DNA of 64,000 nt from Candidatus Magasanikiibacteriota bacterium (GTDB taxonomy: Bacteria; Patescibacteriota; Patescibacteriia; Magasanikbacterales; GWA2-37-8), in assembly GCA_023246655.1 (NCBI GenBank), contig JAHFHX010000001.1, forward strand, positions 28,648 to 92,647, in the 5' to 3' direction. Shown piece after piece: positions 4,971 through 58,457 of this stretch. The notes under the pieces are model-generated. The model saw only the letters and a list, made by a program, of their open reading frames with translations, was not told the DNA's origin and made no database searches. Position numbers and translations under genes: made by a program. Positions within the stretch are counted from its first letter, which is position 1. Each line of letters opens with the position of its first letter.

Positions 4971-5133
4971 CAATACTATTGTCGGAAGGCAATTTTTTTA
5001 GTAGTATAAATGTCGTGAGGAAAGGCGGAGAGGAGATAGGCTGCGTGGGCAACATGCAAAACCTATCTTCCTCTCCCAACCTCACATTGCAAGATACTCG
5101 GTAGAAGCCCGAGTTTTTTGTTTGCTCGGTTTT

Positions 5134-6393
5134 CTAATCCGTGAACACCACGCCCATGTTGAGGGCATCCTTGGCGCCGTGCACGAGTCTTCCGCGGCAG
5201 GCTGTCACCACCGCCTCGGCCGGGGAACGCTCGATGAAGTACACCACGAGGCGCGTGAAGCGCTCGTCCGTCGTGAGCTCCCCGTTCGCGTTGTAGTGCC
5301 GGAATTCCCGCTGGCGCCCCTTGAGCTCCCGCTGGAGGATGTAACGCCCACTGGAGCGCTGCGCTGCGTGGAGCGTGTCCTCAAACCTCGAATCATCCGA
5401 GAAGGCCACCCCCTTCGTCCCCGCCGAGATGGTCTCCTTGAGTACGTAGCGCTCCGTCAGGTTCGGGAGGGCGCCGTGCCGGGTCACGAGGTGGGTTTCC
5501 GGGAGATGCTGCCGGATCGTCTGGAGGGACTGCCCGCTCATCTGGGAACGGAGAATCGCTTCGATGTCGGCGTCATTCCCCGGGTTGCTGAGGATGGCGA
5601 GCAGGTTTTTCGAGCCCATGAAGGGCTTCGGCGGCATGAGGAACTTGATCTCGCCCTTCCGGTAGAGGTCGGCGAGGGCGTCGGTGAGGCGCGGGTTCTC
5701 GGTCATCACGGGGAAGTTCACGAGGGTACGCGTCGTCTCGCGCTCGCCGCGGATGATGAGATTCTGTCCGTCGACCGCCGTCTCGATCTCGTCGGCGACG
5801 ATGAGCTCGACCCCAGCGCTTCGGAGCGCCTGCCGGAGGATGTGAAACTCCGGGAGGTAGAAGCGCTCGCGGTGGCCGTAGAGGAAGACGAGCTGATCGA
5901 GGCCGCGCTTTTTGATCGCCGTCCCGAGACTCGTCCTGATCCCCGGGAGCGTGCTCGCGCCCGGGTTCACGGCCTCACGGATGGCGGCAAAGAGGGTCGC
6001 GTAGCCCATGGCCCGCCGGTTCATCGCGTCGATCTCGGCGATCCACAGGTGTCCCGCGGCGTCTTCCACGAAGTCAACCTTCACGATGAGCGGCGTCGTC
6101 GAGGGCTTCAGGAGCTGGAGCTCCCGGTGCGGCCGCGGCACCTCCATCGCGACAGCGTTCTTCAGGAGATCCCAGGTCTTGCCCGGGGCCAGCTCCCGCT
6201 GGTGGGCGATGGTCGCGATCCGCCCGAGGCCAGCGAGGCTCTCGGTGATCGCGGGGCCCAGGTGCTCGAGCTCCGTCCTCGCGCTCATGGGGAGCGGGAA
6301 GACATCCGGGGTGAGCAGGAAACCGTGCGTTTCCCGCCGTCCGCCGTCCCAGATACCCGATTCAATGACGATCTGTTCAATGAGCCTGTACAT
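5134..6393 (-). CDS. GC-rich (approx 62-65% GC) hypothetical enzyme, possibly ATP-grasp / glutathionylspermidine-synthase-like amidoligase; likely horizontally acquired
   Basis: 419-aa ORF with protein-like composition. The opposite-strand ORF 5122..6531 is an R/E/L-rich shadow. AAGGA sits ~6 nt before the ATG at 6393. The segment SKNLLAILSNPGN resembles the SNKxxLxxLW segment of GspS-like ATP-grasp proteins, but family assignment is tentative. A terminator hairpin follows at 5100-5130. Composition differs strongly from the AT-rich flanks. Confidence 0.55.
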   Translation of the reverse strand: MYRLIEQIVIESGIWDGGRRETHGFLLTPDVFPLPMSARTELEHLGPAITESLAGLGRIATIAHQRELAPGKTWDLLKNAVAMEVPRPHRELQLLKPSTTPLIVKVDFVEDAAGHLWIAEIDAMNRRAMGYATLFAAIREAVNPGASTLPGIRTSLGTAIKKRGLDQLVFLYGHRERFYLPEFHILRQALRSAGVELIVADEIETAVDGQNLIIRGERETTRTLVNFPVMTENPRLTDALADLYRKGEIKFLMPPKPFMGSKNLLAILSNPGNDADIEAILRSQMSGQSLQTIRQHLPETHLVTRHGALPNLTERYVLKETISAGTKGVAFSDDSRFEDTLHAAQRSSGRYILQRELKGRQREFRHYNANGELTTDERFTRLVVYFIERSPAEAVVTACRGRLVHGAKDALNMGVVFTD

Positions 6394-7053
6394 GGTTGTG
6401 TCCTTGCAGTGAGTTGTGGAAACGATTGTCGCTCGTTTCCTTGTTCGTCAGGTTTATACCCTGAAAGGTGTTCTCGTCACATTTCAAAGTACAAAAAACC
6501 CTGCGGTGGGCGCAGGGTAGAGTACAAATAAAGTGTACGCTAATAGTACCCGGCGCCAGTGGTGAGCCAGTTCCAGGCAAAATAATAAGTTGTGGGCAGT
6601 TGTGAGAACATACGTTATATAATAATACTGAGGATTGCAGATAGGTATTCTATGATAAATGTTGGTTGTTCATGAGGGCATTGCGGTTTTGTTATAAAAA
6701 ATAAACCGCCCGATGACTCGGGCGGTTGGTTTAGTAATTTTGTTATCAATTACAAAATTCACCACTCGAGCAAAGAGGGCAGGTGGTACGACCAAAACAG
6801 TGTAATAGAGTGGTGAGAAAATTTCATACAGTTTAAGAATAGTAGTATCGTAATGTTATTTATTTTTTCAGTCAAGCTAGAGTTGTTGATAACTTTATTT
6901 TAAGTATCAATAATGCCGTGGCGTTGAGAACCAATATTTTTTTGTGCCACCTGCTGCCAGTTGTTGGATATTTTATTTTTCCTTCGCAACATCACCAATA
7001 ATCTTGGCGATGTAGTAGAAGGGGAGAGGCGAAATTTTTTCACCTCTCCGCGG

Positions 7054-7127
7054 GGCCCCAGGGCGGATTTGAACCGCCGACTCGCAGATTTTCAGTCCGC
7101 TGCTCTGCCAGGCTGAGCTACCGGGGC
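7054..7127 (-). tRNA. tRNA-Phe (anticodon GAA)
   Basis: The reverse complement folds as a cloverleaf: acceptor GCCCCGG/CTGGGGC, D-arm GCTC-AGCCTGGCA-GAGC, anticodon stem GCGGA/TCTGC with loop CTGAAAA (anticodon GAA), T-arm GGCGG-TTCAAAT-CCGCC. CCA is not encoded. A hairpin at 7021-7050 follows the 3' end. Confidence 0.9.
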
Positions 7128-7187
7128 GGGAGACTTGGGGAGTCAGGGCCGCACGCGTTGCACGCGCGGCGCTGACATCCCGGGGGG

Positions 7188-7337
7188 TCACCGATCGGCG
7201 GCAGGAGGGGGCGCGACCGGACTCTTGCGCCGCCGCGGGGGCGGCAGTTCGAAGGGGTCCACGTGGAATTGTGGATCCTTCTTGATAGGGGGGTTCCCAG
7301 CGGGGGGCTGGGACGGGGGTGCCGGGGTGCGTTCCAT
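7188..7337 (-). CDS. small proline-rich ORF (49 aa) in GC-rich patch
   Basis: ATG 7337..7335 is preceded by AAGGAGA at a 7-nt spacing. Encodes MERTPAPPSQPPAGNPPIKKDPQFHVDPFELPPPRRRKSPVAPPPAADR. The listed 91/100-aa ORFs in other frames lack ribosome-binding sites. Speculative. Confidence 0.3.
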   Translation of the reverse strand: MERTPAPPSQPPAGNPPIKKDPQFHVDPFELPPPRRRKSPVAPPPAADR

Positions 7338-7914
7338 GCGCGTTTCTCCTTACCCCCTTGTAAGCGGGGGTTTGCCAAAGAGTCTCTCAGCACGAGAGGC
7401 GATTGACGCTAGTGCATCGCACGCTATCTCTTGCTGATTATTCTATTTGTCAAAATGAGTAATACGATATCCCGAGTGAGTCGGGATTGTTAACGTCGGC
7501 ATCGAGCTTCGTCCGCCTTTGGCGCACTCGCTCTCCGCTCGTCGTTAACAAAAAAACCGCCCGAAGCTCGGGCGGTTTGGAAATTTGTGTTATTTAGCAA
7601 CCACAAGTTCCACCGCCTGAGCCAGGGGAGGTAAAGTAGAAAAAGAAAACTTGATTTAAGCGGTTGGAATTCATAATATTTAAATGGTAGCACAGGTTGT
7701 TTCGGTAGTCAAATGGAACCTTGTGGATAAATAAAAATTGCGTTATACTGTAGGGTATGGAACTGGTACTAAGTTATTGTAATAAAGCCTCGTAGAGAGT
7801 GGTTTTCTTGCACCCAAACCCCGCTGTGGCGGGTCGTAATGGGCGCCGCGAAAATCACTCTCTATTTCGGCCCAAATTAGATAAAAATTAATGATAATTT
7901 AATACCTACCTTAT

Positions 7915-9075: not shown

Positions 9076-9214
9076 ATTTGAGGAAAAAAATATCCCGACT
9101 CAGTCGGGATATTTTTTGTTCCTTTATTGGCAGAAGGATACCAACAAAGGAACGGACGGAACGACGGACTCCGCGCCGAGTTGCGCGGTGTCTGCCGTTC
9201 CGTAGGTGGCGGGG

Positions 9215-9556
9215 CTATGCCCGCAAGCGGTTGCGGCGGCGATACTCCTGCGTGCGCCGCCGAGAATCAATTCGCGCCCAAAGCGACCGGATGGCTTCGA
9301 GCTCCTGCTCTTCGCGCCTGGCGCGCTCAATGCCCTTCCAAATCCTCTCGCGGCGACCGTTGTCGCTCGTCCGCCGGAGCAGGTCGACGAGGTGCATCCG
9401 TCGGCGGTGCACCGCGACGGAGCCGTTGTGCAGGAGATGCTCAATCTCCTGGCGATGTCCAAGACGCAGCGCCGCATGGAGCGGTCTGTGCCCGGGATAG
9501 AGCAACTGGGCGCTACGTATTAGCCGCCCGTAGCGTACGTCATCAAGGACAGGCAT
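9215..9556 (-). CDS. GC-rich small protein (113 aa) with a single ankyrin-like repeat and Arg-rich tail
   Basis: The ATG at 9556 is preceded by AAGGAGAAGG at a 7-nt spacing. The segment YPGHRPLHAALRLGHRQEIEHLLHNGSV fits the ankyrin consensus G-TPLH-AA--GH---V--LL--GA. It lies in a GC-rich patch at 9120-9560. The opposite-strand Arg-rich ORFs are shadows. Confidence 0.4.
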   Translation of the reverse strand: MPVLDDVRYGRLIRSAQLLYPGHRPLHAALRLGHRQEIEHLLHNGSVAVHRRRMHLVDLLRRTSDNGRRERIWKGIERARREEQELEAIRSLWARIDSRRRTQEYRRRNRLRA

Positions 9557-9818
9557 TCGCCTTCTCCTTGTTCAATTTTTGTTGTGTGCTCCGCGCACTT
9601 TTTACATCCCTAGGTTCCCAGGATGGCTAGCTGTTCTACACGGGGTAGACACGGAGTTGGCTAGCAAAGCAAAACACGCCACTCTACTAGTCCTTCAAAG
9701 TACTATTAGGGTAGTTTGTCTTAACCTTGGCCTAGCTTAGCAGAAAGTAGTTGGCTTTGTCAATAAAACGCCAATATGTTAGGATAACTCTTACTAAACC
9801 TTACGTAAGGTACATTTT

Positions 9819-10922: not shown

Positions 10923-11044
10923 CGGGATAGCACGAATTCCCGACCCAGTCGGGACACGAATAACACAAATCAATTCGTGATATTCGTGGACCCGCCTCCC
11001 ACGCTAGCGCTAGCGTGGGAGGCGGGCCTCGAGCCCATTCATGT

Positions 11045-12349
11045 ATGTTAGAAGAAAAAAGATTACAATCAAATACTCCTTTAGCCGAGCGAATGAGACC
11101 TTGTTCATTTAACGAGTTTGTTGGTCAAGTCGATATAGTTGGGGAAGGGAAGCTCTTGCGCAAACTCATTGAGAATGATGAATTGTCCTCAATTATTTTT
11201 TGGGGTCCGCCGGGAGTAGGAAAGACTACGCTAGCGCGTATTATTGCAGAAGAGACGAAGGCGCGGTTTGTGGCGTTGTCCGGAGTGATGAGTGGGAAAG
11301 ATGATTTGCGGAAAGTGATTGAAGAAGCGCAAAGTGGAAAATCACAAATCCCAATTTCCAATGACCAAATAAATTCCAAATTCCGAGTTCCAAATCAAAC
11401 CCGGACCATTCTCTTTATTGATGAAATTCACCGCTGGAATAAGGCGCAGCAAGATGCACTGCTCCCCTATGTGGAACAGGGAATTGTGACGCTTATTGGC
11501 GCTACGACCGAGAATCCGTCGTTTGAGATTATTGGCGCGTTATTATCTCGATCGCGAGTGTTTATTTTGAAGTATTTGACGACCGAGAATATTGTTGTGC
11601 TCTTGAAGCGGGCGCTCGCCGATAAAGAAAGGGGATTAGGAAATTATAAGATTGAGATTGAGAATGAGACTTTGGAAATACTCGCGGAGCTTGCGGGTGG
11701 GGATGCGCGGGTGGCTTTGAATGGGCTCGAGTTGGCATTTAAATCGAAAGTCGGAAAGTCCGTAAAGTCTCTAAAGTCACCAATTGTAATTACAAATCAG
11801 GAAATAAAACAAGCGTTGCAGCGAACACATTTAGTGTTCGATAAAAAAGGTGAAGAATTTTATAACCTCATCTCCGCACTCCACAAATCCATGCGGGGGA
11901 GTGATCCCAATGCCTCGCTTTATTGGCTCGCACGAATGCTCGAGGGTGGTGCTGATCCTTTGTACGTCGCTCGTCGTATCCTGCGGTTTGCGAGTGAAGA
12001 TATTGGTATGGCCAATAGCGAAGCTATGATACAAGCGAATGCAGCGTATGATGCTTGCCACAAAATTGGGATGCCAGAGTGCACGGTGCATTTGGCTCAG
12101 GCAGTGGTATACTGTGCCAAATCCGCAAAATCAAATTTGTTATATAAAGCCTATCAGGCAGCAGCGAAGGATGCTCGAGAAACTTCTCAACTTGGGGTGC
12201 CAATTCATTTGCGCAACGCACCGGCAAAATTTATGGAGGAGATTGGATATGGAAAAGACTATAAGTATAATCCGGATTATGATGAACCGATAGAACAGGA
12301 TTATATGCCGGAGGAGTTGAGAGGAAGAAACTATCTTAAGAAGAAATAA
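11045..12349 (+). CDS. rarA: replication-associated recombination protein A (AAA+ ATPase RarA/MgsA)
   Basis: Walker A GPPGVGKTTLARIIA and Walker B ILFIDEIHR, plus the C-terminal MgsA helical domain. Start taken at ATG 11045 (MLEEKRLQSNTPLAERMRP). Confidence 0.88.
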   Translation: MLEEKRLQSNTPLAERMRPCSFNEFVGQVDIVGEGKLLRKLIENDELSSIIFWGPPGVGKTTLARIIAEETKARFVALSGVMSGKDDLRKVIEEAQSGKSQIPISNDQINSKFRVPNQTRTILFIDEIHRWNKAQQDALLPYVEQGIVTLIGATTENPSFEIIGALLSRSRVFILKYLTTENIVVLLKRALADKERGLGNYKIEIENETLEILAELAGGDARVALNGLELAFKSKVGKSVKSLKSPIVITNQEIKQALQRTHLVFDKKGEEFYNLISALHKSMRGSDPNASLYWLARMLEGGADPLYVARRILRFASEDIGMANSEAMIQANAAYDACHKIGMPECTVHLAQAVVYCAKSAKSNLLYKAYQAAAKDARETSQLGVPIHLRNAPAKFMEEIGYGKDYKYNPDYDEPIEQDYMPEELRGRNYLKKK

Positions 12350-12409
12350 CAAAATTCTAATGTACGAGTTATGCTAATTAACCTCTTTCATTTTAGCCAA
12401 AAAACACTT

Positions 12410-12546
12410 GTCATTCCGAATCCCCGTCGCAGGGGTGAGGAATCTCTGTCTCAATCAACCAACGACGGACAGAGAGATCCCTCCCGCCAGAGGCGGGCAG
12501 GCCTCGCGCTGTGTCCGCCTTTGGCGGAAGGCTTGCTCGGGATGAC
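12410..12546. repeat. GC-rich palindromic structured element with termini GTCATTCCGA...TCGGGATGAC, possibly a MITE-like repeat or ncRNA
   Basis: The outer inverted repeat encloses three internal hairpins (ATCTCTGTC/GACAGAGAT; CCCGCC-AGAG-GCGGG; CCGCC-TTTG-GCGG). It lies between convergent rarA and tsaE. Its termini resemble the GTCATTGCGAGG repeat family. The listed ORF 12371..12571 is probably not coding. Confidence 0.5.
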
Positions 12547-13657: not shown

Positions 13658-13742
13658 GCAAATTTTTGTAAAAGAATAAGAAATTTGTACCTTTTTAATA
13701 CAGAAAAGTCAAGTTTTAAATTTAATACTAGATAGCCGCAAT

Positions 13743-13836
13743 AAAAACATCCCGACTTAGTCGGGATGTTTTTAATTTTTTTCTCCTCGACTCTCCAGAA
13801 TCGTCCATTGCACAACTCTGGAGATTGGTCGAGGAG
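13743..13836. repeat. direct repeat copy A (terminator hairpin plus 55-bp hairpin unit)
   Basis: AAAAACATCCCGACTTAGTCGGGATGTTTTT followed by TTCTCCTCGACTCTCCAGAATCGTCCATTGCACAACTCTGGAGATTGGTCGAGGA. The 55-bp part is identical to the copy at 14672-14726. Confidence 0.85.
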
Positions 13837-13865
13837 AAGCAGAGGTGCCCGCGGCGCGGTTGCGT

Positions 13866-14147
13866 TCAGAGGATGATGATGTAGAAGGTTGTGGTGCGGG
13901 GCGGCACATCGCAGTCCCTTGCGTCCGCTGCTGTGCGGGACAAGAGCAGGACGACATTTGCTAGTTCCGTCAGCGCCCAGCTTGCGGGGGAGAACACCGT
14001 GTCGCGGCATCCTCCATCATTTTCCCGCCAGCCAATGCCGGGGCCATCTGTGTTTGAGCCACTGTATTCCACTTTGCCGATGACCCTGCGGCCATCGGCG
14101 TGAATTTCGATGATCATGCAGCCGGGCAGAACCTTGCCGAGTTCCAT
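13866..14147 (-). CDS. GC-rich hypothetical small protein (93 aa)
   Basis: The ATG at 14147 is preceded by AAAGGAG at a 9-nt spacing. It lies in a GC-rich patch between the two direct repeats. The C-terminal extent is uncertain because the ORF runs toward the repeat. Confidence 0.4.
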   Translation of the reverse strand: MELGKVLPGCMIIEIHADGRRVIGKVEYSGSNTDGPGIGWRENDGGCRDTVFSPASWALTELANVVLLLSRTAADARDCDVPPRTTTFYIIIL

Positions 14148-14219
14148 TTTTGGAATCTCCTTTCATCTCGCACCATAGCAAAGAGAGAAAGATTTGTAAA
14201 GGGTTAATCAAGTGGACCA

Positions 14220-14621
14220 TTGACAGTCATCAGAATAGCCGGGTATACTACTACCATGAATAAATCAGATTTTAAAAAAGAAGATTTGGACAAAGTGGTA
14301 ACGCTCGGCGTACTTTTGGAATACACCGACGAGTTTTTAATTCCTCGTTTTGCCGATGTTGTGAAAGAAATTGTTCCTTCGATTATTAAAGAATTAGTTC
14401 CACCAATGATTAAAGAAGCTAATGGCCAACTTACCCATGAGTTAAAAGTCTATATTGATGAAAAACTGGCTGATTATAGCTCCGATATTTTTAAACGCCT
14501 TGATAAAAAATACGAGAAAGAAAAACAGTTTAAAGAAAAAGTGGTTCAATTATTTAAGAAACATAAAATCGGTTCACCGGAAGACGTGGCCTTCTTAGAA
14601 GGGTTAGTGCAGGGAAGCTGA
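14220..14621 (+). CDS. hypothetical protein (133 aa, K/E-rich, coiled-coil-like)
   Basis: AT-rich ORF whose terminator belongs to direct repeat copy B. No recognisable domain. Confidence 0.45.
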   Translation: MTVIRIAGYTTTMNKSDFKKEDLDKVVTLGVLLEYTDEFLIPRFADVVKEIVPSIIKELVPPMIKEANGQLTHELKVYIDEKLADYSSDIFKRLDKKYEKEKQFKEKVVQLFKKHKIGSPEDVAFLEGLVQGS

Positions 14622-14640: not shown

Positions 14641-14726
14641 AAAAACATCCCCATTGAATCGGGATGTTTTTTTCTCCTCGACTCTCCAGAATCGTCCATT
14701 GCACAACTCTGGAGATTGGTCGAGGA
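14641..14726. repeat. direct repeat copy B
   Basis: AAAAACATCCCCATTGAATCGGGATGTTTTTTT plus the same 55-bp unit as copy A. Confidence 0.85.
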
Positions 14727-14764
14727 AGGGGGTGAGGGGGGGGCACGAGACACGTGCTGGCTTG

Positions 14765-15073
14765 CTAAAAAAACTCAGCCGCCTCGAGCCCGAAAATGGC
14801 ATCCACGAGCCAGGCCCAGCCGGTGGGTTCGGGCGGGAGCCAAACAGCCATCATCCGCCCTGTGCGGCTTAGCCGGAATTCCGTCCCGGCGGTGCCTCCC
14901 TGATAGACCTCGATGAGCGCCGCCTGCATCAGCTTGTAGCTGACTTTAGCGGCGCGCCGTTTACCCACGGCTTGCGTCGTGCGGCGGATGAACTCCGCCG
15001 TGTCGAGGCTGTCGTCGGGTGGGATAGTGAGCAGATCCCGCAGGATCGCTCGGTGCGGTTTTCTCAGTTTCAT
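14765..15073 (-). CDS. GC-rich hypothetical small protein (102 aa), weak resemblance to RelE/ParE-type toxins
   Basis: The ATG at 15073 is preceded by GGAGG at a 7-nt spacing. The C-terminal segment EFRLSRTGRMMAVWLPPEPTGWAWLVDAI loosely resembles the RelE/ParE core YRLRVGDYRIIY...LVVL.IGHR. No adjacent antitoxin is evident, so this is a low-confidence call. Confidence 0.35.
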   Translation of the reverse strand: MKLRKPHRAILRDLLTIPPDDSLDTAEFIRRTTQAVGKRRAAKVSYKLMQAALIEVYQGGTAGTEFRLSRTGRMMAVWLPPEPTGWAWLVDAIFGLEAAEFF

Positions 15074-15159
15074 TGCAAGACCTCCAATAGGTAGTCAAGA
15101 GGATTATCGAATTATTGTCAATAGTTGATTTAACTAGTCTTTTTCTGTATACTATTTTT

Positions 15160-15447
15160 ATGACTCTATCAATTGAAGAAGTTCGTAAAATTGCTCAATT
15201 GGCCCGAATCGAGCTTACGCCGGAGGAACTTGCTCGCCACGCCGAAACTATGTCGGCGGTTTTAGATTATATGAACATTTTAAATGAGGTGGATACTACA
15301 GGTGTTGAACCTACGTTTCAGGTTACGGGTCTTGAGAACGTGTATCGAGACGACGAAGTGGTTGAATGTAAACTGCGTGATAGACTCCTCAAGCAGATGC
15401 CAGAGGTGGAGATGGAGGAATTGGTTGTTCCCGGTGTTTTTGATTAG
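15160..15447 (+). CDS. gatC: aspartyl/glutamyl-tRNA(Asn/Gln) amidotransferase subunit C
   Basis: MTLSIEEVRKIAQLARIELTPEELARHAETMSAVLDYMNILNEVDTTGVEPT, ~95 aa, immediately upstream of gatA. Confidence 0.85.
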   Translation: MTLSIEEVRKIAQLARIELTPEELARHAETMSAVLDYMNILNEVDTTGVEPTFQVTGLENVYRDDEVVECKLRDRLLKQMPEVEMEELVVPGVFD

Positions 15448-15451
15448 CACT

Positions 15452-15563
15452 GTCATTGCGAGGAGTGAACTTCGCAGTGAACGACGAAGCAATCCCCCTT
15501 TTTGTGAGAAAGTTGGTGGCGCAATAAGGGGGATTGCCGCGTCGCTTCGCTCCTCGCAATGAC
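15452..15563. repeat. palindromic MITE/REP-like element, copy 1
   Basis: GTCATTGCGAGGAG...CGACGAAGCAATCCCCC / GGGGGATTGCCGCGTCG...CTCCTCGCAATGAC, a long imperfect hairpin between gatC and gatA. Copies occur at 59169-59283 (full) and 21746-21793 (partial). Confidence 0.85.
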
Positions 15564-15570
15564 AAATACT

Positions 15571-17013
15571 ATGAATCTGAACGAACTGACAGTTACCCAA
15601 GCCGCTGAAGGCTTGCGAAAAAAAGAATTTACCTCGGTTAAACTCACCGAGGCTTGTTTGGCACGCATCAACAAGCGTAACAAAGATATTAACGCCTTTA
15701 TTACCGTATGTGATGAGTCGGCAATCAGCGAAGCTAAAAAAGCAGACGAAATGATCGCCCGCGGCGAAGCAAGGCCGCTCACCGGTATTCCATTTGCCGT
15801 CAAAGACGCTATTTGTACTGCCGACGTTCGCTCGACTGGCTCGGCCAAGATTTTAGATAATTACACACCACCCTACGACGCCACGGTCATTAAGAAAATT
15901 CGCGATCAGGGTGGCGTATTAATTGGCAAAAATAATTGCGATGCGTTTGGCCATGGGGCGAGTAATGAAAATAGCATGTACGGGCCGGTGAGGAATCCTC
16001 ACGACCTGACCAAAGTGGCGGGCGGCTCCAGCGGTGGATCGGCTGCGGCAGTAGCAGATAATATGTGCGTCTACGCCATCGCGGAAGATACCGGCGGTTC
16101 AATTCGTTACCCGGCAAGTTTTTGCGGGGTCGTTGGCATGCGTCCTAGCTACGGCCGCAATTCACGCTACGGCATTATGCCGATGGCTTCGTCGCTCGAT
16201 ACCGTAGGCCCTATGACGAAGACCGTTGAAGATATGGCCCTGGTTATGGAATGTATAGCTGGTTCTGATCCGCTCGACGCCACCACAGTACCAGATGCTG
16301 TTCCCGCGTATCATACGGGAATTAAGAATGAAGAATTAAGAATGAAGAATTTGCGAATTGGTGTCCCACGAGAGTACTTTGAAATCGAAGGGATGGATGA
16401 GGAAGTGAGGACGATCACGGATGAAAAGATTGAAAGATTAAAAGATTTGGGGTGTAAAATTGTTGATGTGAGTTTGCCGCATACGAAATACGCGATTGCG
16501 GTCTATTATATTATTGTCCCGAGCGAAGATAGCTCAAATTTAGCGCGGCTTGATGGAATTCGCTATGGCGTGCGCAACACCGAAGGGCGAACGCTGTATG
16601 ATATGTATGCCAAGTCACGTCGCTTTGGGTTTCCAGAAGAAGTAAAACGCCGCATCCTTATTGGTACCTATGCTTTGTCAGCCGGGTATTATGATGCTTA
16701 TTATAAAAAAGCCCAACAAGTGCGCACCCTTATTAAAAAAGATTTTGATGAAGTCTTTCAAAAAGTCGACGTACTCATTACACCAACGTCGCCATTTCCT
16801 CCCTTTGCCATTGGTGACAAAGTGAGCGATCCTTTAGCGATGTATTTAGCCGATGTTATGGTTGGCCCAGCCGCGGTGGCAGGGATTCCGGCAATTTCAG
16901 TTCCCGGAGGGAAAACAAAAACCGGACTTCCAATTGGTGTGCAGATTATTGGAGCAAGGATGAGCGAAGGGACAGTGATGAATATTGGGTACTGGTTGGA
17001 AAAATCCAAATAA
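15571..17013 (+). CDS. gatA: Glu-tRNA(Gln)/Asp-tRNA(Asn) amidotransferase subunit A
   Basis: Amidase signature GGSSGGSAAAVA. The N-terminus MNLNELTVTQAAEGLRKKEF aligns with GatA starts. The listed ORF start at 15559 lies inside the repeat terminus, so 15571 is preferred. Confidence 0.9.
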   Translation: MNLNELTVTQAAEGLRKKEFTSVKLTEACLARINKRNKDINAFITVCDESAISEAKKADEMIARGEARPLTGIPFAVKDAICTADVRSTGSAKILDNYTPPYDATVIKKIRDQGGVLIGKNNCDAFGHGASNENSMYGPVRNPHDLTKVAGGSSGGSAAAVADNMCVYAIAEDTGGSIRYPASFCGVVGMRPSYGRNSRYGIMPMASSLDTVGPMTKTVEDMALVMECIAGSDPLDATTVPDAVPAYHTGIKNEELRMKNLRIGVPREYFEIEGMDEEVRTITDEKIERLKDLGCKIVDVSLPHTKYAIAVYYIIVPSEDSSNLARLDGIRYGVRNTEGRTLYDMYAKSRRFGFPEEVKRRILIGTYALSAGYYDAYYKKAQQVRTLIKKDFDEVFQKVDVLITPTSPFPPFAIGDKVSDPLAMYLADVMVGPAAVAGIPAISVPGGKTKTGLPIGVQIIGARMSEGTVMNIGYWLEKSK

Positions 17014-17077: not shown

Positions 17078-18448
17078 ATGTCTCCAAAATCCAAATCCAA
17101 ACCCGAACCCGAACCAGCCGTTGCCCCAGCATCCCCGATTCCTGAGCATCACCACCTCGAAACCGCTGGAGCGGCTGTTAATTATCGTGATAGTTGGCGG
17201 ATTTTTAGAATTATTGCCGAAATGGTAGATGGTTACCAGTTTTTGGCTGATCTTACAAAAGAAGTCATCGTGCTTGGTTCAGCGCGCATCCCACCGAATA
17301 ATAAATATTATAAGATTGCAGAAGAATTGGGCAGGCTTTTGGGTAAACATGGCTTTACCACTGTTACCGGCGGCGGACCGGGCATTATGGAAGCAGCCAA
17401 TAAAGGTGCGTTTGAAGCTGGCGGTGAATCGGTAGGGCTTAATATTCAACTGCCTTTTGAACAACGCATTAACCCCTATGTTAAGAAGGCTACAGCGTTT
17501 TATTATTTTTTTACGCGAAAAGTAATGTTAACTTCACCGGGTAATGCCTTCGTTTTTTTCCCCGGCGGGTTTGGCACGTTTGATGAATTTTTTGAAGTGG
17601 TAGATTATATGGAACTGGGGTTTATGGAAAAAGCCCCCATTGTTCTTGTTGGAAAAGAGTTTTGGCAACCGGTTGTTAACTTTCTCCGAAAAAAATCTAT
17701 CGACGAAGTGCACGCCATTACTGAAGCTCATATCGCCAATTGGCATATTGTTGATACTGCTGAGGAGGCATATGAACTTGTTAAAGATGCACCTGACCAC
17801 CCCAACAGCTATCATGATGACCCTAAAAATCCGCTGTATCAGGCCGGCAGTGCCGATTGGCGTGTGTTCCGAATTATGGCGGAACTCGTAGATGGATTTG
17901 AATTCCTTACTAATATTCAAAATGATGTAACGGTGCTTGGCACGAAGAGCGTGACGCCAGGATCGCCGTATTACCAGGCGGCCTATGAGCTAGGAAAAAT
18001 ATTAGCAAAAAACCAACACGCTGTACTCACGGGCGGCGGCCCTGGTATCATGGAAGCTGCCAACAAGGGTGCGTTTGAGGGCAATGGTAAAAGTGTTGGT
18101 ATTAATGTAAATTTTGCTGGTAAAGAACGAATTAATAATTATATTACCAATTCAATTAGCTTCTTTTTCCCGTTTGTTCGCAAGCTCATTATTACCGCCC
18201 CGTCGGAAGCGTTTGTTTTCTTCCCCGGCGGGTTTGGCACGCTCCATCAGCTATTTGAGCTCTTAACGCTCCAAGAAACTAAAAAAATGGAACCGTTTCC
18301 CATTATGCTTTACGATAAACCATTTTGGCAGCCGCTGCTTGATATTGTGCATAATTTGTATGCTGAATTTAAAACTATCAGCCACATGGATGAACTTTTT
18401 ATTAAGACCATTAATAAGCCGGAAGAAGTGATGGTGTACCTGAAATAA
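17078..18448 (+). CDS. tandem-duplicated LOG family (TIGR00730 / cytokinin riboside 5'-monophosphate phosphoribohydrolase-like) protein
   Basis: Two complete LOG-like domains, each with GGGPGIMEAANKGAFE and PGGFGT(F/L) motifs. Preceded by a low-complexity P/E-rich N-terminus. Confidence 0.8.
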   Translation: MSPKSKSKPEPEPAVAPASPIPEHHHLETAGAAVNYRDSWRIFRIIAEMVDGYQFLADLTKEVIVLGSARIPPNNKYYKIAEELGRLLGKHGFTTVTGGGPGIMEAANKGAFEAGGESVGLNIQLPFEQRINPYVKKATAFYYFFTRKVMLTSPGNAFVFFPGGFGTFDEFFEVVDYMELGFMEKAPIVLVGKEFWQPVVNFLRKKSIDEVHAITEAHIANWHIVDTAEEAYELVKDAPDHPNSYHDDPKNPLYQAGSADWRVFRIMAELVDGFEFLTNIQNDVTVLGTKSVTPGSPYYQAAYELGKILAKNQHAVLTGGGPGIMEAANKGAFEGNGKSVGINVNFAGKERINNYITNSISFFFPFVRKLIITAPSEAFVFFPGGFGTLHQLFELLTLQETKKMEPFPIMLYDKPFWQPLLDIVHNLYAEFKTISHMDELFIKTINKPEEVMVYLK

Positions 18449-20856: not shown

Positions 20857-21022
20857 AACAAAATCCCAAATTTCAAGTATCAAATTTCAAATAAGCACCA
20901 AATCCAAAATTTTAAATTTTGAGATTTGAAAATGGTGATTTATTTTGGATTTGGAATTTGTTATTTGGGATTTTTTAGTTGTGTATAATTTCTCTCTTGA
21001 CAGTATTGGTAGCCGTGGTATA

Positions 21023-21745: not shown

Positions 21746-21793
21746 GTCATTGCGAGGAAGACGATTCGCATCGGCTGACTTGGCAATCCCCCT
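21746..21793. repeat. partial (left-arm) copy of the GTCATTGCGAGGA palindromic element
   Basis: GTCATTGCGAGGAAGACGATTCGCATCG...GCAATCCCCC with no right arm. It sits between hrcA and grpE. Confidence 0.7.
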
Positions 21794-21846
21794 GCTTTCA
21801 GAACCAAGATTGAAAGATTAGAAGATTAAAAGATTGATATATTATT

Positions 21847-22974: not shown

Positions 22975-23577
22975 ATGGCCGAAGGACCACCACGAAGGGA
23001 TTCAAAAAAAGGTATTGCAGCCCTTGTCGCTGGGGGAGTTGCTCTTGGCGCTGCTGGGGTTTGGTTGGCCAATGAAGCCCATCAAGAAGTCGCGCAACCG
23101 TCCAGGCAGGTAGCGCCCAGACAACCACGAGAACGAAGAGCACCAGCGCCAGCAGCAACGCCGTCACCAGATTTTAGTATTTTGCCACCTGGTGAACGAG
23201 CAGTGCGCCGAGGTTCTGAAGACGACCCGGATGCATCGGATCGCCCACTGACCGAAGCGGAAGTTTTGGCGGTACTTGCAGAAGGGGACACGGCAGAACA
23301 GGCGGACAAAATTTTTGAGTATCTAAAGCCTCCCAGGATTCATAATTTAGAAAAGATTCAGTATAGCGAAGAAGGACACGTTTTTGAAGTCTATAGCAAT
23401 ACCCAACCAAGCGGCCCGCCGATTGCTCAATTTAAAATTCATGAAGCTTCCGGCGGATCATTATCATTTTTGTACCGGCCAATTGTGAGTGTTGCAGAGG
23501 TAACGCCTGAGGAAAAAGAATGTCATAATTTGGGAGAATTAGAGAGCGCTCTTGTATCAACTATTGTAGGTAGATAA
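22975..23577 (+). CDS. hypothetical protein with GC-rich, Pro/Ala/Arg-rich N-terminal half and AT-rich C-terminal half
   Basis: 200-aa ORF. The N-terminal segment GIAALVAGGVALGAAGVWL is TM-like. No recognisable domain. Confidence 0.45.
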   Translation: MAEGPPRRDSKKGIAALVAGGVALGAAGVWLANEAHQEVAQPSRQVAPRQPRERRAPAPAATPSPDFSILPPGERAVRRGSEDDPDASDRPLTEAEVLAVLAEGDTAEQADKIFEYLKPPRIHNLEKIQYSEEGHVFEVYSNTQPSGPPIAQFKIHEASGGSLSFLYRPIVSVAEVTPEEKECHNLGELESALVSTIVGR

Positions 23578-30471: not shown

Positions 30472-30592
30472 TTTTGGATTGTCCCCTCCTTGCGAAGGAG
30501 GGGCGAGGGGTGGTCCAAGTTGCGTCGACACAGAGCGTTGACCCCTCCCTGTCCTCCCCTTCGTAAGGAGAGGACAACGAAAAACAAACAGT

Positions 30593-33131: not shown

Positions 33132-34472
33132 TTAATATGGTAGTTTCCAAAGTCCCTGGTTATCTACAAAGTAGAGTATACGCCTCGATGTATCTACGGT
33201 AAAGGCAGAAATTGATTGTGGGGCCAGTTCTTGTTCAATATTATAGCTAGAAAAAAGAATAGCAAGTTTATTGCCTCGGAGGAGTGCTAGAGTAGCTTCA
33301 TCGAGTGGTAACACCTGGGCAAGAGTATCACTAAAACGGTTAATTAGATATGGTTCACCTTCTTCCGGAAAGTCCCAAAGTTCCCACGGTGTCCAGATGA
33401 TCCACTCACCTGATTTTAATGAACGAACAAATTGTCCCTGGCTGAATTGTCGGTATTTATTTGGAGTCACCAGAAGCAATTCGTTAGAATGCAATTGTTT
33501 AAGCCACACAACGGCTTTATGAGCGGCTGCTATTCTCCATCCAGACGTAGTTGCGTTGGTTGGTAGTGTGATAGTGGTCCAGGGAGTCATAAAACCAAGT
33601 ACATCTTTGATAATCCGGAGTTGCCCAGTGGTGGTACTGTTTTCAAGAGCCCACAATTCTCCGTCATCTATATGCCAATCCATAAAGGTATGGGTGGCAA
33701 CAGGAAGCTGGTGTTGAAGGCGTGGGAAGAGTACGTTAAGGGTTGTGCTGGTATTATAATAGAGTTCTGGTTCAGTAGTATTTCGCCACTCAAAAGAGAT
33801 AATCGGTGCTGAAGTTGTTGATTGTATATCAAATTGATGTTCTATATTTTCACTATCAATTACCACCAGTGTTGGTGAAGAGTTTGAATTATCTGTGAGG
33901 GCCAAGAAATTCGTGCGAGGTGCCCAGATCAAACGAACTGGTTTTAAGGAAGCGATGCTCCGAATGTGGAGAAAGATTTTCTTTTGAGTATTATATAGCC
34001 AGAGTTCAGTGCTACTCGCTGAAGAGGCTTTAGTATAGGCCAGATATTGACCATCAGTTGAAAGAGCAATTTTAGGGATCGTGCCTGTAGCTATTTGTTC
34101 AGGTGATGCCTTTTTTAGTAAATGAATATTATTAATATAGGTAGTTTGTTCATTCGTAACTACAATTTGTTTTTCCCAATCATAATAATTGGGGGCGCTG
34201 ATACGCAATCGGTATGTCTGGGGCTTAATGTTTGTTAAGCGAATCGGTATATCTTTATGGATAAGCAGATCATTCAAGTACACCACAGCATTTTTAGGAA
34301 GTATATCAATATTAACGCTCCCCGTTGCCTTGAGTAGACCGTTTTTTATGTCGTAGCGAAATCCAGCAGTATAGAGGAGTACAGCTGGTACCAGTACACA
34401 AAATAAGAAGATAAAAATACCCAGTACGAATAATCGCCAGGGACGGGTAAACACAGCGCCAGGATACTCCAT
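33132..34472 (-). CDS. hypothetical membrane-anchored protein (446 aa)
   Basis: N-terminal TM segment WRLFVLGIFIFLFCVLVPAVLLY followed by a large extracytoplasmic domain. No recognisable motif. Confidence 0.5.
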   Translation of the reverse strand: MEYPGAVFTRPWRLFVLGIFIFLFCVLVPAVLLYTAGFRYDIKNGLLKATGSVNIDILPKNAVVYLNDLLIHKDIPIRLTNIKPQTYRLRISAPNYYDWEKQIVVTNEQTTYINNIHLLKKASPEQIATGTIPKIALSTDGQYLAYTKASSASSTELWLYNTQKKIFLHIRSIASLKPVRLIWAPRTNFLALTDNSNSSPTLVVIDSENIEHQFDIQSTTSAPIISFEWRNTTEPELYYNTSTTLNVLFPRLQHQLPVATHTFMDWHIDDGELWALENSTTTGQLRIIKDVLGFMTPWTTITLPTNATTSGWRIAAAHKAVVWLKQLHSNELLLVTPNKYRQFSQGQFVRSLKSGEWIIWTPWELWDFPEEGEPYLINRFSDTLAQVLPLDEATLALLRGNKLAILFSSYNIEQELAPQSISAFTVDTSRRILYFVDNQGLWKLPY

Positions 34473-47897: not shown

Positions 47898-47925
47898 TCC
47901 TCACAAAATCTGCATAATCTGTGTT

Positions 47926-48540
47926 ATGAAAGTCATTCATATTATTCCCTCAGCCTTTAGTTATTTTGATGATATTCGTTCCAATGCGTTTTATGTGGTA
48001 GATAATCTCAGCAAGATTGGGGTAGAAACAGAGGCTATTACTATTGAGTTTGGGATGACGGTACCCACTGCTGTTCGTGAAGCGATTGGGGAAGAAGCAC
48101 CTTCCCAAAAATATCAGGGACTGGCTCCCATGTCTCAGGTTATGGCATCGCTCGATCAGTTTGATATTATTCACGTCCATTGTCCGCTGTTTGGTGCCGC
48201 GGGAAAAATTCTTAGTTGGAAGCGCCAGCATCCTAACCGCTGTTTAGTAGTAACCTACTATCGCCGGGTAATGATACCAGATTTTTTTAGCTTACTCATC
48301 GTTGCCTATAATTTTTATTATCTACCACGTTTGCTGGCCGCGGCGGAAGTAGTAATAACCCCGGCATTACGTAGTATGCCTTGGAGCTTACAACGCCGGA
48401 ATCAACGGATAATTGAAATTGATGAATCTCCTAGTTTTAACGGCGTTGATGTGACAGTTAACCCGGATGGAGAAGTGTTATCTCCCGGAGAGCAGCTTGC
48501 CATGAAATATGCCATGGTGTATACTACTATCGTTAATTAA
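47926..48540 (+). CDS. hypothetical protein resembling the N-terminal domain of GT4 glycosyltransferases
   Basis: MKVIHIIPSAFSYFDD...FDIIHVHCPLFGAAG is GT4-N-like. The start codon is embedded in the conserved TAATCTGTGTTATG motif. Confidence 0.5.
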   Translation: MKVIHIIPSAFSYFDDIRSNAFYVVDNLSKIGVETEAITIEFGMTVPTAVREAIGEEAPSQKYQGLAPMSQVMASLDQFDIIHVHCPLFGAAGKILSWKRQHPNRCLVVTYYRRVMIPDFFSLLIVAYNFYYLPRLLAAAEVVITPALRSMPWSLQRRNQRIIEIDESPSFNGVDVTVNPDGEVLSPGEQLAMKYAMVYTTIVN

Positions 48541-56099: not shown

Positions 56100-56839
56100 G
56101 GTGATGGTGGGGCAAAATTGAGTGTGAGTAACGCATACGCCGTACCAATTTTTTGCTCTTCGGTGCGGGCAATGGTGAGTGTCCCCGCAGTGTCATTCTT
56201 GTTAAAGGTAATTTGTCTGCTGTTGCTATTTTGATTCTCTTCGGAAATTGTATATCCTGCTTTGCGCAACTCCTTTTTATAGTACGACATAATAAACCCT
56301 GGCTCAGCATCAAGATTTTTCCATTCAATTTCTATACTATCACGCGGGTCACCAACCGGTGTTTGAATTAACTGCCAGATTCGTTTAAGGTAGTGAGATT
56401 GCTCTTCTGATGGCGTTGGTTCTGGTTCGGACGCTGTGCTGTAGTTGGAATTAGTACGTAGTAATAGTGGTGATAAAATAATTTTTGGGAAGAAAGCGGC
56501 TAATTCAAGACCGCGGCTTTTATATTTTCCCGAGATAAATGTTATTTGTTCAATATTGTCTTTATCATAGAGTGGAATATCGATTGGAAAATGAGCGGGA
56601 AGTGTTTTTATGGTTTTTGGACCTGGGCCAATAGCCAACCACACAGCGATAATGATTGCAATTACAAAAAGTATCACACTACTGCAACCAGTGAGACAGG
56701 TGCGACGGAAGCCAGAATGATGTTTGCTTAATTCTTCAATTGGTGGTTCAACAATTTCGATTTTGTCGATATTCGGACGACGCATAGATATAATATAAAT
56801 CGACGGAATTACAGATACAAAAAAATTACCTCCGTACAC
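56096..56839 (-). CDS. hypothetical membrane-anchored protein (247 aa)
   Basis: One TM segment then an extracytoplasmic domain. ATGA overlap with murJ suggests the same operon. Confidence 0.45.
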   Translation of the reverse strand: MYGGNFFVSVIPSIYIISMRRPNIDKIEIVEPPIEELSKHHSGFRRTCLTGCSSVILFVIAIIIAVWLAIGPGPKTIKTLPAHFPIDIPLYDKDNIEQITFISGKYKSRGLELAAFFPKIILSPLLLRTNSNYSTASEPEPTPSEEQSHYLKRIWQLIQTPVGDPRDSIEIEWKNLDAEPGFIMSYYKKELRKAGYTISEENQNSNSRQITFNKNDTAGTLTIARTEEQKIGTAYALLTLNFAPPSP

Positions 56840-56987
56840 CCGGCTTGTTTCTTGTAGTATAGCAATAAAGTTCGTTTTTGCCTAGCCTAGACTATATTGC
56901 TCTTTTGTTAAGCGACTGATATACTTAACACAGATTATGCGGATTACAATCTGTGTAATCCTCACAAAAATGTGTGTAATCTGTGTT

Positions 56988-58457
56988 ATGCGTATTACTT
57001 TTTTCGGTGCCGCCGGTGAGGTAACTGGTTCTTGTAGTCTGCTTGAAGTCGGTCCCTATAGAATTCTAATTGATTGCGGGATGTTTCAGGGCAGCCTTGA
57101 AATGGAAGCTATGAATCATCAGGCATTACCTTTTGATCCTAAGAGTTTGACCCATGTTTTTATTACCCATGCGCATCTTGACCATACCGGCCGGCTGCCG
57201 CTCTTGGTTAAGCAGGGGTATGTTGGCTATTTTTATGCCACTGCCCCCACCATGGAGCTCGCGGAATTGGTCATGCGGGACGCTCATGGCATCATGTTAT
57301 ATGATCATCAACATTTTGGTCGGCCAATTCTATATGGCGAAGAAGATATTGCTGGTGTAATGACCCAGTTTAAGACGGTGGAGTATGGGGAAGAGATGGA
57401 ATTCCCCGCTTGGGCGGGGAAGGCCTCGCAGCCAGGGGTGGGTGAGACCATTGAGTCGCCACTTGCCACTGCCACGCAACGACCTCACCCACCCCTACCC
57501 CGCCCAAGCGGGGAATCGAACGTTGCCGAAAGTGTCACCGTCACCTTCCACGACGTCGGCCACATTTTTGGTTCGGCCTTTATTGAGATCAGAGCCGAAG
57601 GCAAAAAAATTGTTTTCTCCGGAGATGTCGGCAACGTTCATGTGCCAATTTTACGCGATACAGAACCACTCCCGTCTAACCTTGATCTCTTGGTGTGTGA
57701 GTCCACGTACGGCGATCGCCTGCATGAAGTGCAGGCCACGCGTGAAGAAATGATTGAACAAGCGATCCTTAACGCCGTTAAAGGTGGGGGAGTGCTTATG
57801 ATTCCGTCATTTGCTTTGGAACGGACCCAAGAACTTATTTATGAACTTAACAAACTCATTGATCACAAACATAAACTAACCAACGTCCCCATTTATCTGG
57901 ACAGCCCGCTCGCCATTGATGCTACCAAAGTGTATCGCAAGTACCCACAATATTATGACGAAAAAGCCGCCGAATATTTTAAAGAGGGTGATGATATTTT
58001 TACCTTTCCTAATCTCATTACCACTTATTCTCGGGAAGAGTCAATGAAAATTAATCACACGCCGGGCCCCAAAGTTATTATCGCTGGCGCCGGCATGATG
58101 AACGGCGGCCGCATCCTCCATCACGCTCTTCATTATTTATCTGATGCCCGTAACACCATTCTTTTCATCGGCTATCAATCACCCAGCACCCTCGGCCGAC
58201 AAATTATGGAAGGCCACTCTCCGGTCACGGTGCACGGTGAACGCGTAGTCGTTAAATGCCAAATAAAAGTTATGGGCGCGCTCTCGGCGCACGGCGATCA
58301 AAATAAACTGGTGAGTTGGATTAGCGCCGGTCGGCCCAAAAGAGTTATCTTCAATCATGGGGAACCCGGGCCCTCTGCGGCGGTGGCGAAAAGGTTGCAG
58401 CAAGAATGCGGTGTTGAAGCTGCTCCAGCAGTGCTCAATTCAACCGTTATTGTTTGA
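56988..58457 (+). CDS. MBL-fold metallo-hydrolase, RNA-metabolising beta-CASP nuclease (RNase J-like)
   Basis: MRITFFGAAGEVTGSC and HAHLDHTGRLP (HxHxDH), plus beta-CASP motifs. Contains an in-frame 38-codon GC-rich insert at 57402-57515. The start codon is embedded in the conserved upstream motif. Confidence 0.8.
   Translation: MRITFFGAAGEVTGSCSLLEVGPYRILIDCGMFQGSLEMEAMNHQALPFDPKSLTHVFITHAHLDHTGRLPLLVKQGYVGYFYATAPTMELAELVMRDAHGIMLYDHQHFGRPILYGEEDIAGVMTQFKTVEYGEEMEFPAWAGKASQPGVGETIESPLATATQRPHPPLPRPSGESNVAESVTVTFHDVGHIFGSAFIEIRAEGKKIVFSGDVGNVHVPILRDTEPLPSNLDLLVCESTYGDRLHEVQATREEMIEQAILNAVKGGGVLMIPSFALERTQELIYELNKLIDHKHKLTNVPIYLDSPLAIDATKVYRKYPQYYDEKAAEYFKEGDDIFTFPNLITTYSREESMKINHTPGPKVIIAGAGMMNGGRILHHALHYLSDARNTILFIGYQSPSTLGRQIMEGHSPVTVHGERVVVKCQIKVMGALSAHGDQNKLVSWISAGRPKRVIFNHGEPGPSAAVAKRLQQECGVEAAPAVLNSTVIV

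Follow-up and report, generated by a model that had tools for sequence, protein, structure and literature searches.

GC-rich patches in a Magasanikbacteria genome fragment: foreign-looking single-gene islets, palindromic elements and one native gene region

Background

How do short GC-rich patches come to be scattered among the housekeeping genes of an AT-rich bacterial genome? The question is raised by a 64,000-nucleotide stretch of contig JAHFHX010000001.1 (assembly GCA_023246655.1, Candidatus Magasanikiibacteriota bacterium), which spans positions 28,648 to 92,647 of the forward strand and is called the window below. It lies within an NCBI contig of 159,913 bp. Its MgsA protein is 65-74% identical to proteins of Candidatus Magasanikbacteria metagenome-assembled genomes (MAGs), and the window therefore comes from a member of the CPR (Candidate Phyla Radiation), or Patescibacteria. 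These bacteria have tiny streamlined genomes and an ecology that is poorly understood, and in them foreign genes are among the few clues to the partners of DNA exchange.

A sequence-only reading of the window had listed nine GC-rich patches and ascribed them to repeated uptake from a high-GC donor, such as a host or partner organism, or else to a mobile class of GC-rich repeats able to carry small genes. The patches are of three kinds: foreign-looking gene islets, palindromic repeats and one native gene region. It is likely, in our judgement, that the islets are indeed foreign, the listed patches being a mixture of imported single genes, palindromic elements and one native coding segment.

Composition of the window

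The GC content of the window is 44.7%, or 43.6% with the listed patches excluded. The patches were scored against same-length windows outside them: 5100-6420 (GC 64.9%, z 8.8), 7130-7440 (65.9%, z 5.3), 9120-9560 (64.2%, z 5.7), 12410-12546 (62.8%, z 3.2), 13837-14160 (59.6%, z 3.9), 14727-15075 (63.6%, z 5.1), 22975-23330 (56.2%, z 3.1), 30470-30590 (55.4%, z 1.8) and 57402-57515 (68.4%, z 3.8). Their 500-bp flanks have a GC content of 36-49%. The patches are thus discrete, as had been claimed: eight of the nine (z 3.1-8.8) lie above all same-length background windows. Patch 30470-30590 is marginal by GC, being equalled by 3.8% of the background windows; the hairpin element in it is nonetheless real.

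The possibility that all patches form one repeat family, which the sequence-only reading had itself raised, was ruled out. All-versus-all blastn of the patches retrieved just a 60-nt hairpin common to two of them and a family of elements at 15451 and 59169.

Gene islets

The islets occupy the patches 5100-6420, 9120-9560, 13837-14160, 14727-15075 and possibly 7130-7440. All five lie within 10 kb, and each consists of a single gene of 0.3-1.3 kb. Their open reading frames (ORFs), named by length o419, o113, o93, o102 and o49, are all on the minus strand, opposite to most of their neighbours, and each comes just after a native hairpin of terminator type (AAAAACATCCCGACTTAGTCGGGATGTTTTT family) or beside the tRNA-Phe gene. 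The GC content of the islets is 59-66%, and at third codon positions (GC3) of their ORFs it is 0.70-0.89; GC3 of the native genes is 0.26-0.52. These native genes are of the housekeeping kind: 6PGD, G6PD, GDH, 6PGL, an aminotransferase, a PLD-family protein, MgsA, a TsaE fusion, GatC/GatA, DnaK/DnaJ, CTP synthase, LepA, MurJ, RecJ and others. Searches with the islet ORFs in Pfam, NCBIfam, PADLOC and the PDB sequences were all empty, and blastp of the five among themselves produced no matches, the proteins being unrelated.

The islets also differ from the native genes in their translation signals. Both strands were scanned for strong Shine-Dalgarno (SD) boxes, defined as AAGGAG, AGGAGG or GGAGGT situated 4-10 nt before the start codon of an ORF of at least 45 codons. 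Five such sites were found in the 64 kb, and four of the five belong to the patch ORFs starting at 7337, 9556, 14147 and 15073. The sequence-only reading had assigned AAGGAG to all four; this is correct for 7337, 9556 and 14147, but the box before the ORF starting at 15073 is GGAGGT. Its statement that many native genes lack SD boxes holds, since an SD-like motif of any sort was observed at about 6 of about 55 native ORFs (the starts of the longest ORFs were used, and some of them are possibly wrong). In two cases, gatC (15148-15162) and an AT-rich 121-aa ORF (14244-14258), a TATACT -10 box occurs exactly 6 nt before the ATG, with no SD box. This spacing suggests that leaderless mRNAs may be the native mode of translation start, contrasting with the SD-led start of the candidate foreign ORFs.

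Sequences from independent assemblies and related loci, about 170 of which were fetched, are cited below by L numbers where needed. Independent contigs (ENA ERZ27276474 and ERZ27280021; Logan SRR14366783 and SRR14366787) cross the left border of 5100-6420 and both borders of 9120-9560, 13837-14160 and 14727-15075, with 99.8-100% identity. The left border of the o419 island is spanned by the independent assembly L176, and both borders of the o113 patch by four independent assemblies. Chimeric assembly therefore does not account for the patches.

The largest islet gene, o419 (5134-6393, minus strand, 419 aa), forms the core of a GC island at 5096-6414 and is preceded by AAGGA 8 nt before the ATG. 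Its GC content is 65.7%, or 0.65, 0.43 and 0.89 at the first, second and third codon positions. It has 32 full-length homologs of 33-49% identity; few of them carry a source name, and all that do are from Patescibacteria MAGs. The AlphaFold2 (AF2) model derived from the homolog alignment has a predicted local distance difference test score (pLDDT) of 93.4. In a Foldseek search of the PDB it matched 48 chains along the full length (E 6e-17 to 1e-8, template modelling score 0.6-0.69). These are eukaryote-type glutathione synthetases, glutathionylspermidine synthetase (GspS) and YgiC/YjfC, with 11-15% sequence identity. Because of these matches of the model, o419 is predicted to be a glutathione-synthetase/GspS-like ATP-grasp amide ligase. 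No sequence-profile membership was detected: there was no match in Pfam (GSH_synth_ATP or GSP_synth), NCBIfam, PADLOC or the PDB sequences.

The compositional deviation of the o419 family is not restricted to the window. Of 50 metagenome loci, 49 have the gene at a higher GC content than its flanks; the median excess is 5 points, and in seven loci it is more than 10 points. In L005 the homolog is a 64.8% GC island in a contig of 50% GC, which is an excess of 14 points.

The exact o419 protein does not occur in the protein collection, though neighbour proteins from the same NCBI contig are present. In L176, an independent ENA assembly, the gene caller chose a plus-strand ORF at 5122-6531 over the minus-strand o419. 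At least some public annotations probably have a wrong call at the ATP-grasp ligase gene.

The second conserved family is that of o93 (13866-14147, minus strand, 93 aa), which has an AAGGAG box and a promoter-like site at 14200-14172. An exhaustive HMMER search with o113, o93 and o102 covered 1.84 billion representatives, and for o93 it retrieved a family of about 25 small homologs of 30-48% identity with invariant W40, R48, W57, D80, P82 and Y89. The AF2 model is a seven-strand all-beta domain with pLDDT 96, and it has no significant fold match in the PDB or BFVD. In the JGI contig L171 (44% GC) the homolog is a single-gene island of 62% GC with GC3 0.82 and an AAGGAGG box; this protein was also seen on contigs of up to 1.8 Mb. 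The homolog in L174, on the other hand, is AT-rich, with 41% GC in a 48% GC context. The homologs of o93 occur in contigs of 44-57% GC, and the family is clearly scattered across genomes of differing composition. Taking o419 and o93 together, the genomes hosting homologs have a GC content of 33-57%, with GC outliers in L005, L097, L136 and L171 and an AT outlier in L174. At least these two islet ORFs are real genes, and members of both families are found here and there in genomes that differ in GC content.

At L171:7859-8598 the o93 homolog is flanked on both sides by inverted repeats, imperfect and about 95 nt long, which have a perfect core of 22 nt, TGGAAATCAGGGCAATTTTTCT. Its neighbours are ISAZ013, rve and ISL3 transposase genes. 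By its arrangement (inverted repeat, passenger gene, inverted repeat), this unit resembles a mobile insertion cassette (MIC).

Two further islets are occupied by o113 (9215-9556, minus strand), which encodes an Arg-rich protein of 113 aa, has GC3 0.75 and an AAGGAG box and shows GC periodicity of the coding type, and by o102 (14765-15073, minus strand, 102 aa; GC3 0.76, GGAGGT box). Folding was compared with that of shuffled sequences. The ORF bodies of o113 and o93 fold no better than the shuffles (z -0.7 and -0.8, respectively), and for o102 the fold z score is -3.2. Two GC-rich hairpins with z -5.65 are observed at 9118-9203, between a native terminator (9085-9117) and the stop codon of o113.

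The o93 and o102 islets lie between tsaE and gatC. An exact 60-nt hairpin occurs there in two copies, 100% identical: the first (13776-13835, z -5.4) is between a native terminator at 13742-13774 and the stop codon of o93, and the second (14667-14726) is between a terminator at 14641-14671 and the stop codon of o102. Among the fetched loci, further copies were found only in contigs of the source organism. Between the two islets is the AT-rich 121-aa ORF mentioned above (14256-14621, plus strand, 36% GC), with its leaderless-type start and a promoter-like site at 14220-14249. It is called as a 121-aa gene in the independent assembly L010, and tblastn found no match to it in related loci, including L025 and L026.

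In the relative L026 the spacer between tsaE and gatC is about 100 bp, as compared with 1.45 kb in the window, where it contains o93, the 121-aa ORF and o102. Since tsaE stands beside gatC in relatives, the block at 13.7-15.1 kb is extra. Around o419, o49 and o113 synteny is not conserved in relatives, the nearest of which are 65-74% identical at the protein level. The comparison with relatives proposed in the sequence-only reading thus confirmed the absence of the o93-o102 block from L026 and gave no syntenic site for the other islets. In L025 (RIFOXYC2_FULL_42_28) the tsaE-gatC spacer (11930-12405) contains a 470-nt array of GC-rich hairpins, with z about -10 on both strands and no Rfam match.

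The possible fifth islet, at 7130-7440, abuts the 5' end of the tRNA-Phe gene (GAA anticodon; 7052-7127, minus strand; identified by ARAGORN and Rfam), and o419 is situated about 650 bp past its 3' end. No duplicate of the tRNA-Phe 3' end was found nearby. The GC-rich structured segment at 7128-7445 (minus strand) holds o49 (7188-7337, minus strand), a Pro-rich ORF of 49 codons with an AAGGAG-N8-ATG start. No homolog of o49 was found in a word-indexed search of four joined small ORFs, which is a weak negative, as the query ORFs themselves were not returned either. The SD site aside, it is doubtful that o49 is coding. On the other side of this neighbourhood, an imperfect 70-nt hairpin (5015-5085, z -6.8) is located directly 3' of o419 in gene orientation.

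GC islands in related loci

Other Magasanikbacteria loci repeatedly contain GC islands as well, about 1 kb long and with GC3 0.75-0.87. Two Magasanikbacteria loci, L014 and L021, are 86-90% identical in DNA, and L014:3432-4545 is a 1.1-kb insertion missing from L021 (at position 4729). The insertion contains one SD-led gene, with GC3 0.85, encoding a 211-aa membrane protein. It is situated downstream of a tRNA gene, and GGCTACA(A/C)C repeats copying the tRNA 3' end mark its boundaries. It looks like site-specific cargo that has no integrase of its own. As far as the sequence comparison goes, the Magasanikbacteria lineage thus gains one-gene GC-rich inserts, probably by site-specific recombination. 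In the same locus GTTGGGGCTACAA occurs twice, at 3249 and 3419.

The two loci also have in common a 403-aa PurM/AIR-synthase-like gene (L014:4699-5910 and L021:4879-6090) with GC3 0.85 in both. Between the two loci this gene has diverged more than the native ones: the identity of its products is 79% at the amino acid level, while the native genes are about 97% identical at codon positions 1 and 2.

Palindromic elements and the native GC-rich gene

[quoted passage not shown] They are nested hairpins of about 100-140 nt with fold z scores of -5.4 to -9.5 and no transposase gene. The palindromic elements are GC-rich because they are long hairpins with paired G and C.

A 137-nt nested palindrome, GTCATTCCGA...TCGGGATGAC, is situated at 12410-12546 in the intergenic region between mgsA and tsaE (z -6.4), and its termini recur on elements in L014 and L025. 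A 114-nt nested palindrome, TGTCATTGCGAGG...CCTCGCAATGACA, is situated at 15451-15564 between the gatC stop codon and gatA (z -9.5). Its family includes an element at 59169-59283 and members in L010, L033, L079 and L094. The first in-frame ATG of gatA is inside the right arm of this palindrome (15559-15573), and a second ATG follows 12 nt downstream; the element may have altered the start of gatA or the coupling of gatC and gatA. The 115-nt element of the GTCATTGCGAGG family at 59169-59283 is upstream of mraW (rsmH). A half copy of the same family at 21746-21793, which is 71% identical to 15452-15499, is not a hairpin (z 0.09).

The elements with the consensus GTCATT(G/C)CGA...TCG(C/G)AATGAC are at 12410, 15451 and 59169 in the window, together with the half copy at 21746. 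Elsewhere the family was found in L014, L025, L033, L079 and L094; the loci with copies are labelled Magasanikbacteria, Kuenenbacteria and Roizmanbacteria, and one is from an unclassified bacterial MAG. A literature search with the element termini (GTCATTGCGAG and related strings) returned only unrelated primer matches.

Two other nested palindromes occur in one copy each within the 64 kb. One, of about 100 nt (30478-30580, z -5.4), is upstream of the gene at 30593-31531. The other, of 116 nt (57401-57516, plus strand, z -8.2), is within the beta-CASP RNase gene at 56937-58457 and leaves the frame open. Thermus TTHA0252 has just two residues opposite residues 157-199 of this RNase; the element therefore adds an in-frame insert of about 41 aa. 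In L025 the tsaE ORF contains a translated 96-nt palindromic element (11602-11697). A 36-nt perfect GC-rich palindrome is found in the window at 10991-11026, between the PLD gene and mgsA. The elements at 15451-15564, 59169-59283 and 10991-11026, as well as the o419 ORF in the largest patch, had not been listed by the sequence-only reading.

The patch at 22975-23330 (plus strand) is of the third kind. It covers the 5' portion of a 200-aa native gene and encodes a segment with many Ala, Pro, Glu, Arg and Gly residues, which probably forms a membrane-anchored N-terminus. The codon-position GC values are 0.76, 0.55 and 0.37. The patch is native and not foreign DNA, because its third codon position is native-like.

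Several other repeats were observed as well. The AT-rich motif TAACACAGATTACGCAGATTA occurs in direct and inverted orientation at 33014-33132, 47907-47938 and 56914-56946. Genes that start next to it are an RNase H/RVT_3-like gene (32614-33024, minus strand), the one at 33132-34472 and that of the beta-CASP RNase, and the motif may serve them as a common operator or promoter element. The sequence TTTTTTCCCCGGCGGGTTTGGCACG is found at 17546-17595 and 18209-18258, which are 663 nt apart within a Lysine_decarbox/SLOG-domain gene (17078-18448), and at 39741-39766; the pair within the gene probably reflects its internal domain duplication. Around an hrcA-like gene, the spacers (20860-20974 and 21800-21843) hold inverted repeats of AT-rich sequence (23% GC, z -5.4) as well as 8-nt units GATTAAAA/GATTGAAA in tandem.

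Origin of the islets

The best-supported origin of the islets is acquisition by horizontal transfer from a higher-GC lineage that uses SD boxes. It is based on observed composition, including GC by codon position, on the contrast in SD sites, the gap in synteny, the way homologs are distributed, the folds and the support from independent assemblies; the direction and donor of the transfer, the mechanism of insertion and the expression of the ORFs are proposed. Under this proposal o419, o113, o93, o102 and perhaps o49 would be single genes that landed in intergenic spacers. The imported genes would have brought their own SD sites, and o93 also its promoter-like site, and would not yet have drifted toward the composition of the host genome. 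The palindromic elements would have settled in spacers and, once, in frame inside the beta-CASP RNase gene.

The transfer would have been horizontal, from a Patescibacteria lineage of about 60-65% GC that is absent from the sampled genomes. An unsampled member of this phylum seems the most likely donor, rather than a host, because the named o419 homologs are from Patescibacteria and because horizontal gene transfer (HGT) into Patescibacteria comes mainly from other Patescibacteria (PMC12455944, mSystems 2025). Of the two sources first proposed, uptake from a high-GC donor thus agrees with the foreign look of the islets (GC3, SD boxes and the tsaE-gatC gap) and does not apply to the palindromes and 22975-23330. 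A host or partner as the donor is not borne out. The mobile class of GC-rich repeats with small genes survives in part: three listed and several unlisted patches are palindromic repeats, but in the window these carry no genes, and the sole sequence common to gene patches is the 60-nt hairpin in two of them.

Several observations weigh against a foreign origin of the islets. None of the 50 metagenome o419 loci matches the 65.7% GC of the window copy, the maximum being 61%, and the donor is therefore unsampled; the closest homolog is 49% identical, and the donor sequence was not found among the sampled homologs. In the PurM-like island 23% of third codon positions differ between L014 and L021 with GC3 unchanged. 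As this island retains GC3 0.85 in both lineages, GC-rich islands can last long without approaching host composition, and high GC3 is not proof of recent arrival. The only matches of o113 are weak ankyrin-repeat ones at residues 15-64, and o102 matched only itself in the exhaustive HMMER search; the case for both being coding is made by GC3, the SD site and the absence of RNA structure. The o49 segment is strongly structured (z -6.75) and possibly non-coding. Absence from the syntenic site in relatives is established for the tsaE-gatC block alone. There is no integrase or transposase among the window ORFs of at least 195 aa, including no Phage_integrase match, and no direct or inverted repeats flank the islets in the window.

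One possibility, to which we give a small but appreciable chance, is that the islets are dispersed single-gene cassettes that have no integrase and are moved in trans by a recombinase acting at hairpin, terminator or tRNA-derived sites. Both of the unrelated genes o93 and o102 are followed by exactly the same 60-nt hairpin, placed each time directly behind a terminator belonging to one family; hairpins are present 3' of o419 and o113 too, and every islet is a single gene in one orientation. The L014 insert with its tRNA-end repeats and the L171 homolog of o93 between long inverted repeats point the same way. However, such repeats are observed around no islet of the window, where no recombinase was found either. 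The 60-nt hairpin has no attC-like R''/R' cores and was seen twice, in this organism only, and the hairpins of the other islets are unrelated to it in sequence. It could be a small palindromic element that landed twice beside T-rich terminators. That one dispersed system shuttles small genes, e.g. those of the o93 family, between Patescibacteria of very different GC content is an idea we hold to be improbable, if worth recording; if true, the 60-nt hairpin, the L014 insert and the L171 homolog would be traces of one system.

Structured non-coding RNAs stand out by their GC content in AT-rich genomes, and the patches could be such RNAs, the ORFs being incidental. The segment 7128-7445 and, less strongly, the o102 region fold better than shuffles, and all the short patches are strong hairpins. 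The bodies of o113 and o93 do not, however, and the ORF frames have codon-position GC of the coding type. Moreover, conserved protein homologs were found for o419 and o93, whose folds are predicted with confidence, and SD boxes with ATG are nearly confined to the islet ORFs. A search of the window with Rfam, at the gathering threshold and even at E <=1, retrieved two tRNAs and noise alone. We consider this explanation quite unlikely.

Direct uptake from a high-GC host or partner, e.g. an actinobacterial or other basibiont, has a similarly slim chance. The 60-66% GC, GC3 of up to 0.89 and the use of SD boxes would fit many high-GC bacteria, and the weak ankyrin-like repeat of o113 belongs to a domain type sometimes exchanged between symbiont and host (a sponge-symbiont case is mentioned in PMC12455944). 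On the other hand, no named o419 homolog is assigned to a high-GC phylum, and the contigs with o93 homologs have at most 57% GC. In tblastn searches of phage and plasmid collections o419 and o93 had no match, an IMG/VR pattern scan for o419 found none, and the data identify no host.

Assembly or binning chimeras, to which the sequence-only reading had pointed as a possible source of the patches, are largely refuted and highly improbable: the window is from a MAG contig and sharp steps in composition are a classic warning sign, but contigs from other runs cross the borders named above at 99.8-100% identity.

If the islets were imported, the 10-kb stretch would be a local hotspot of four or five one-gene imports with foreign codon usage and translation signals. 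Two conserved unnamed families, the predicted ATP-grasp ligase o419 and the all-beta protein o93, recur as compositional outliers elsewhere and are candidates for accessory functions. For the palindromes, the implication is that CPR genomes carry RPE-like elements able to sit in frame inside essential genes. There is also a consequence for annotation, as palindromic elements create spurious ORFs and inflate protein lengths.

Comparison with known systems

The o419 protein is similar to glutathione synthetase, GspS and YgiC/YjfC ligases in the predicted fold along its full length. It differs from them in its 11-15% identity, the lack of a sequence hit and the restriction of its named homologs to Patescibacteria.

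Integron cassettes consist of a promoterless ORF and an attC hairpin. The islets resemble them in being single short ORFs of unknown function with an SD box, followed by an imperfect hairpin that two of them share. However, intI, attI and a tandem array are all missing, housekeeping genes separate the islets, and o93, at least, is equipped with a promoter-like site of its own. No IntI/attI and no attC array lacking an integrase (CALIN) was found in the window, whose ORFs have no Phage_integrase match. The attC cores R'' (RYYYAAC) and R' (GTTRRRY) are not present in the hairpins 3' of the ORFs (13776-13840 and 5012-5092 were read directly).

The passenger genes of MICs and tycheposons are not accompanied by their own transposase or integrase, and tycheposons target tRNA genes. 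The similarity is seen in related loci, namely in the L014 insert with repeats of the tRNA 3' end and in the L171 insert with long inverted repeats. Neither type of boundary occurs around the window islets; in particular, terminal inverted repeats as in MICs surround none of them and are present in L171.

The HGT islands of Patescibacteria (PMC12455944) are likewise deviant genes in streamlined CPR genomes, with named relatives in Patescibacteria and cargo of unknown or accessory function. The islets share with them the deviant composition and, for the tsaE-gatC block, the absence from L026. They differ in being single genes of 0.3-1.3 kb that are led by SD boxes among residents without them. 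Mobility genes and flanking repeats were not found at the islets, and the adjoining tRNA-Phe gene has no duplicated 3' end.

The palindromic elements are close to RPEs and MITEs: they are palindromes of 100-150 nt (all below 300 bp) that fold as hairpins along the full length, have no coding capacity or transposase gene of their own and form several sequence families per genome, and the GTCATT(G/C)CGA family is multicopy. In-frame insertion of RPEs in genes is known from Rickettsia (Ogata et al. 2000 as reviewed, PMC10969869). As with RPEs, some of the elements lie in spacers and others interrupt housekeeping genes without breaking the frame (the beta-CASP RNase gene here and tsaE in L025). 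They are unrelated to RPEs in sequence, belong to the CPR phylum and are GC-rich in an AT-rich genome, and the window and its relatives contain one or two intragenic cases as compared with dozens in Rickettsia. The patches thus extend known phenomena, HGT islets and MITE-like or RPE-like elements, to a poorly studied CPR lineage and leave current concepts unchanged.

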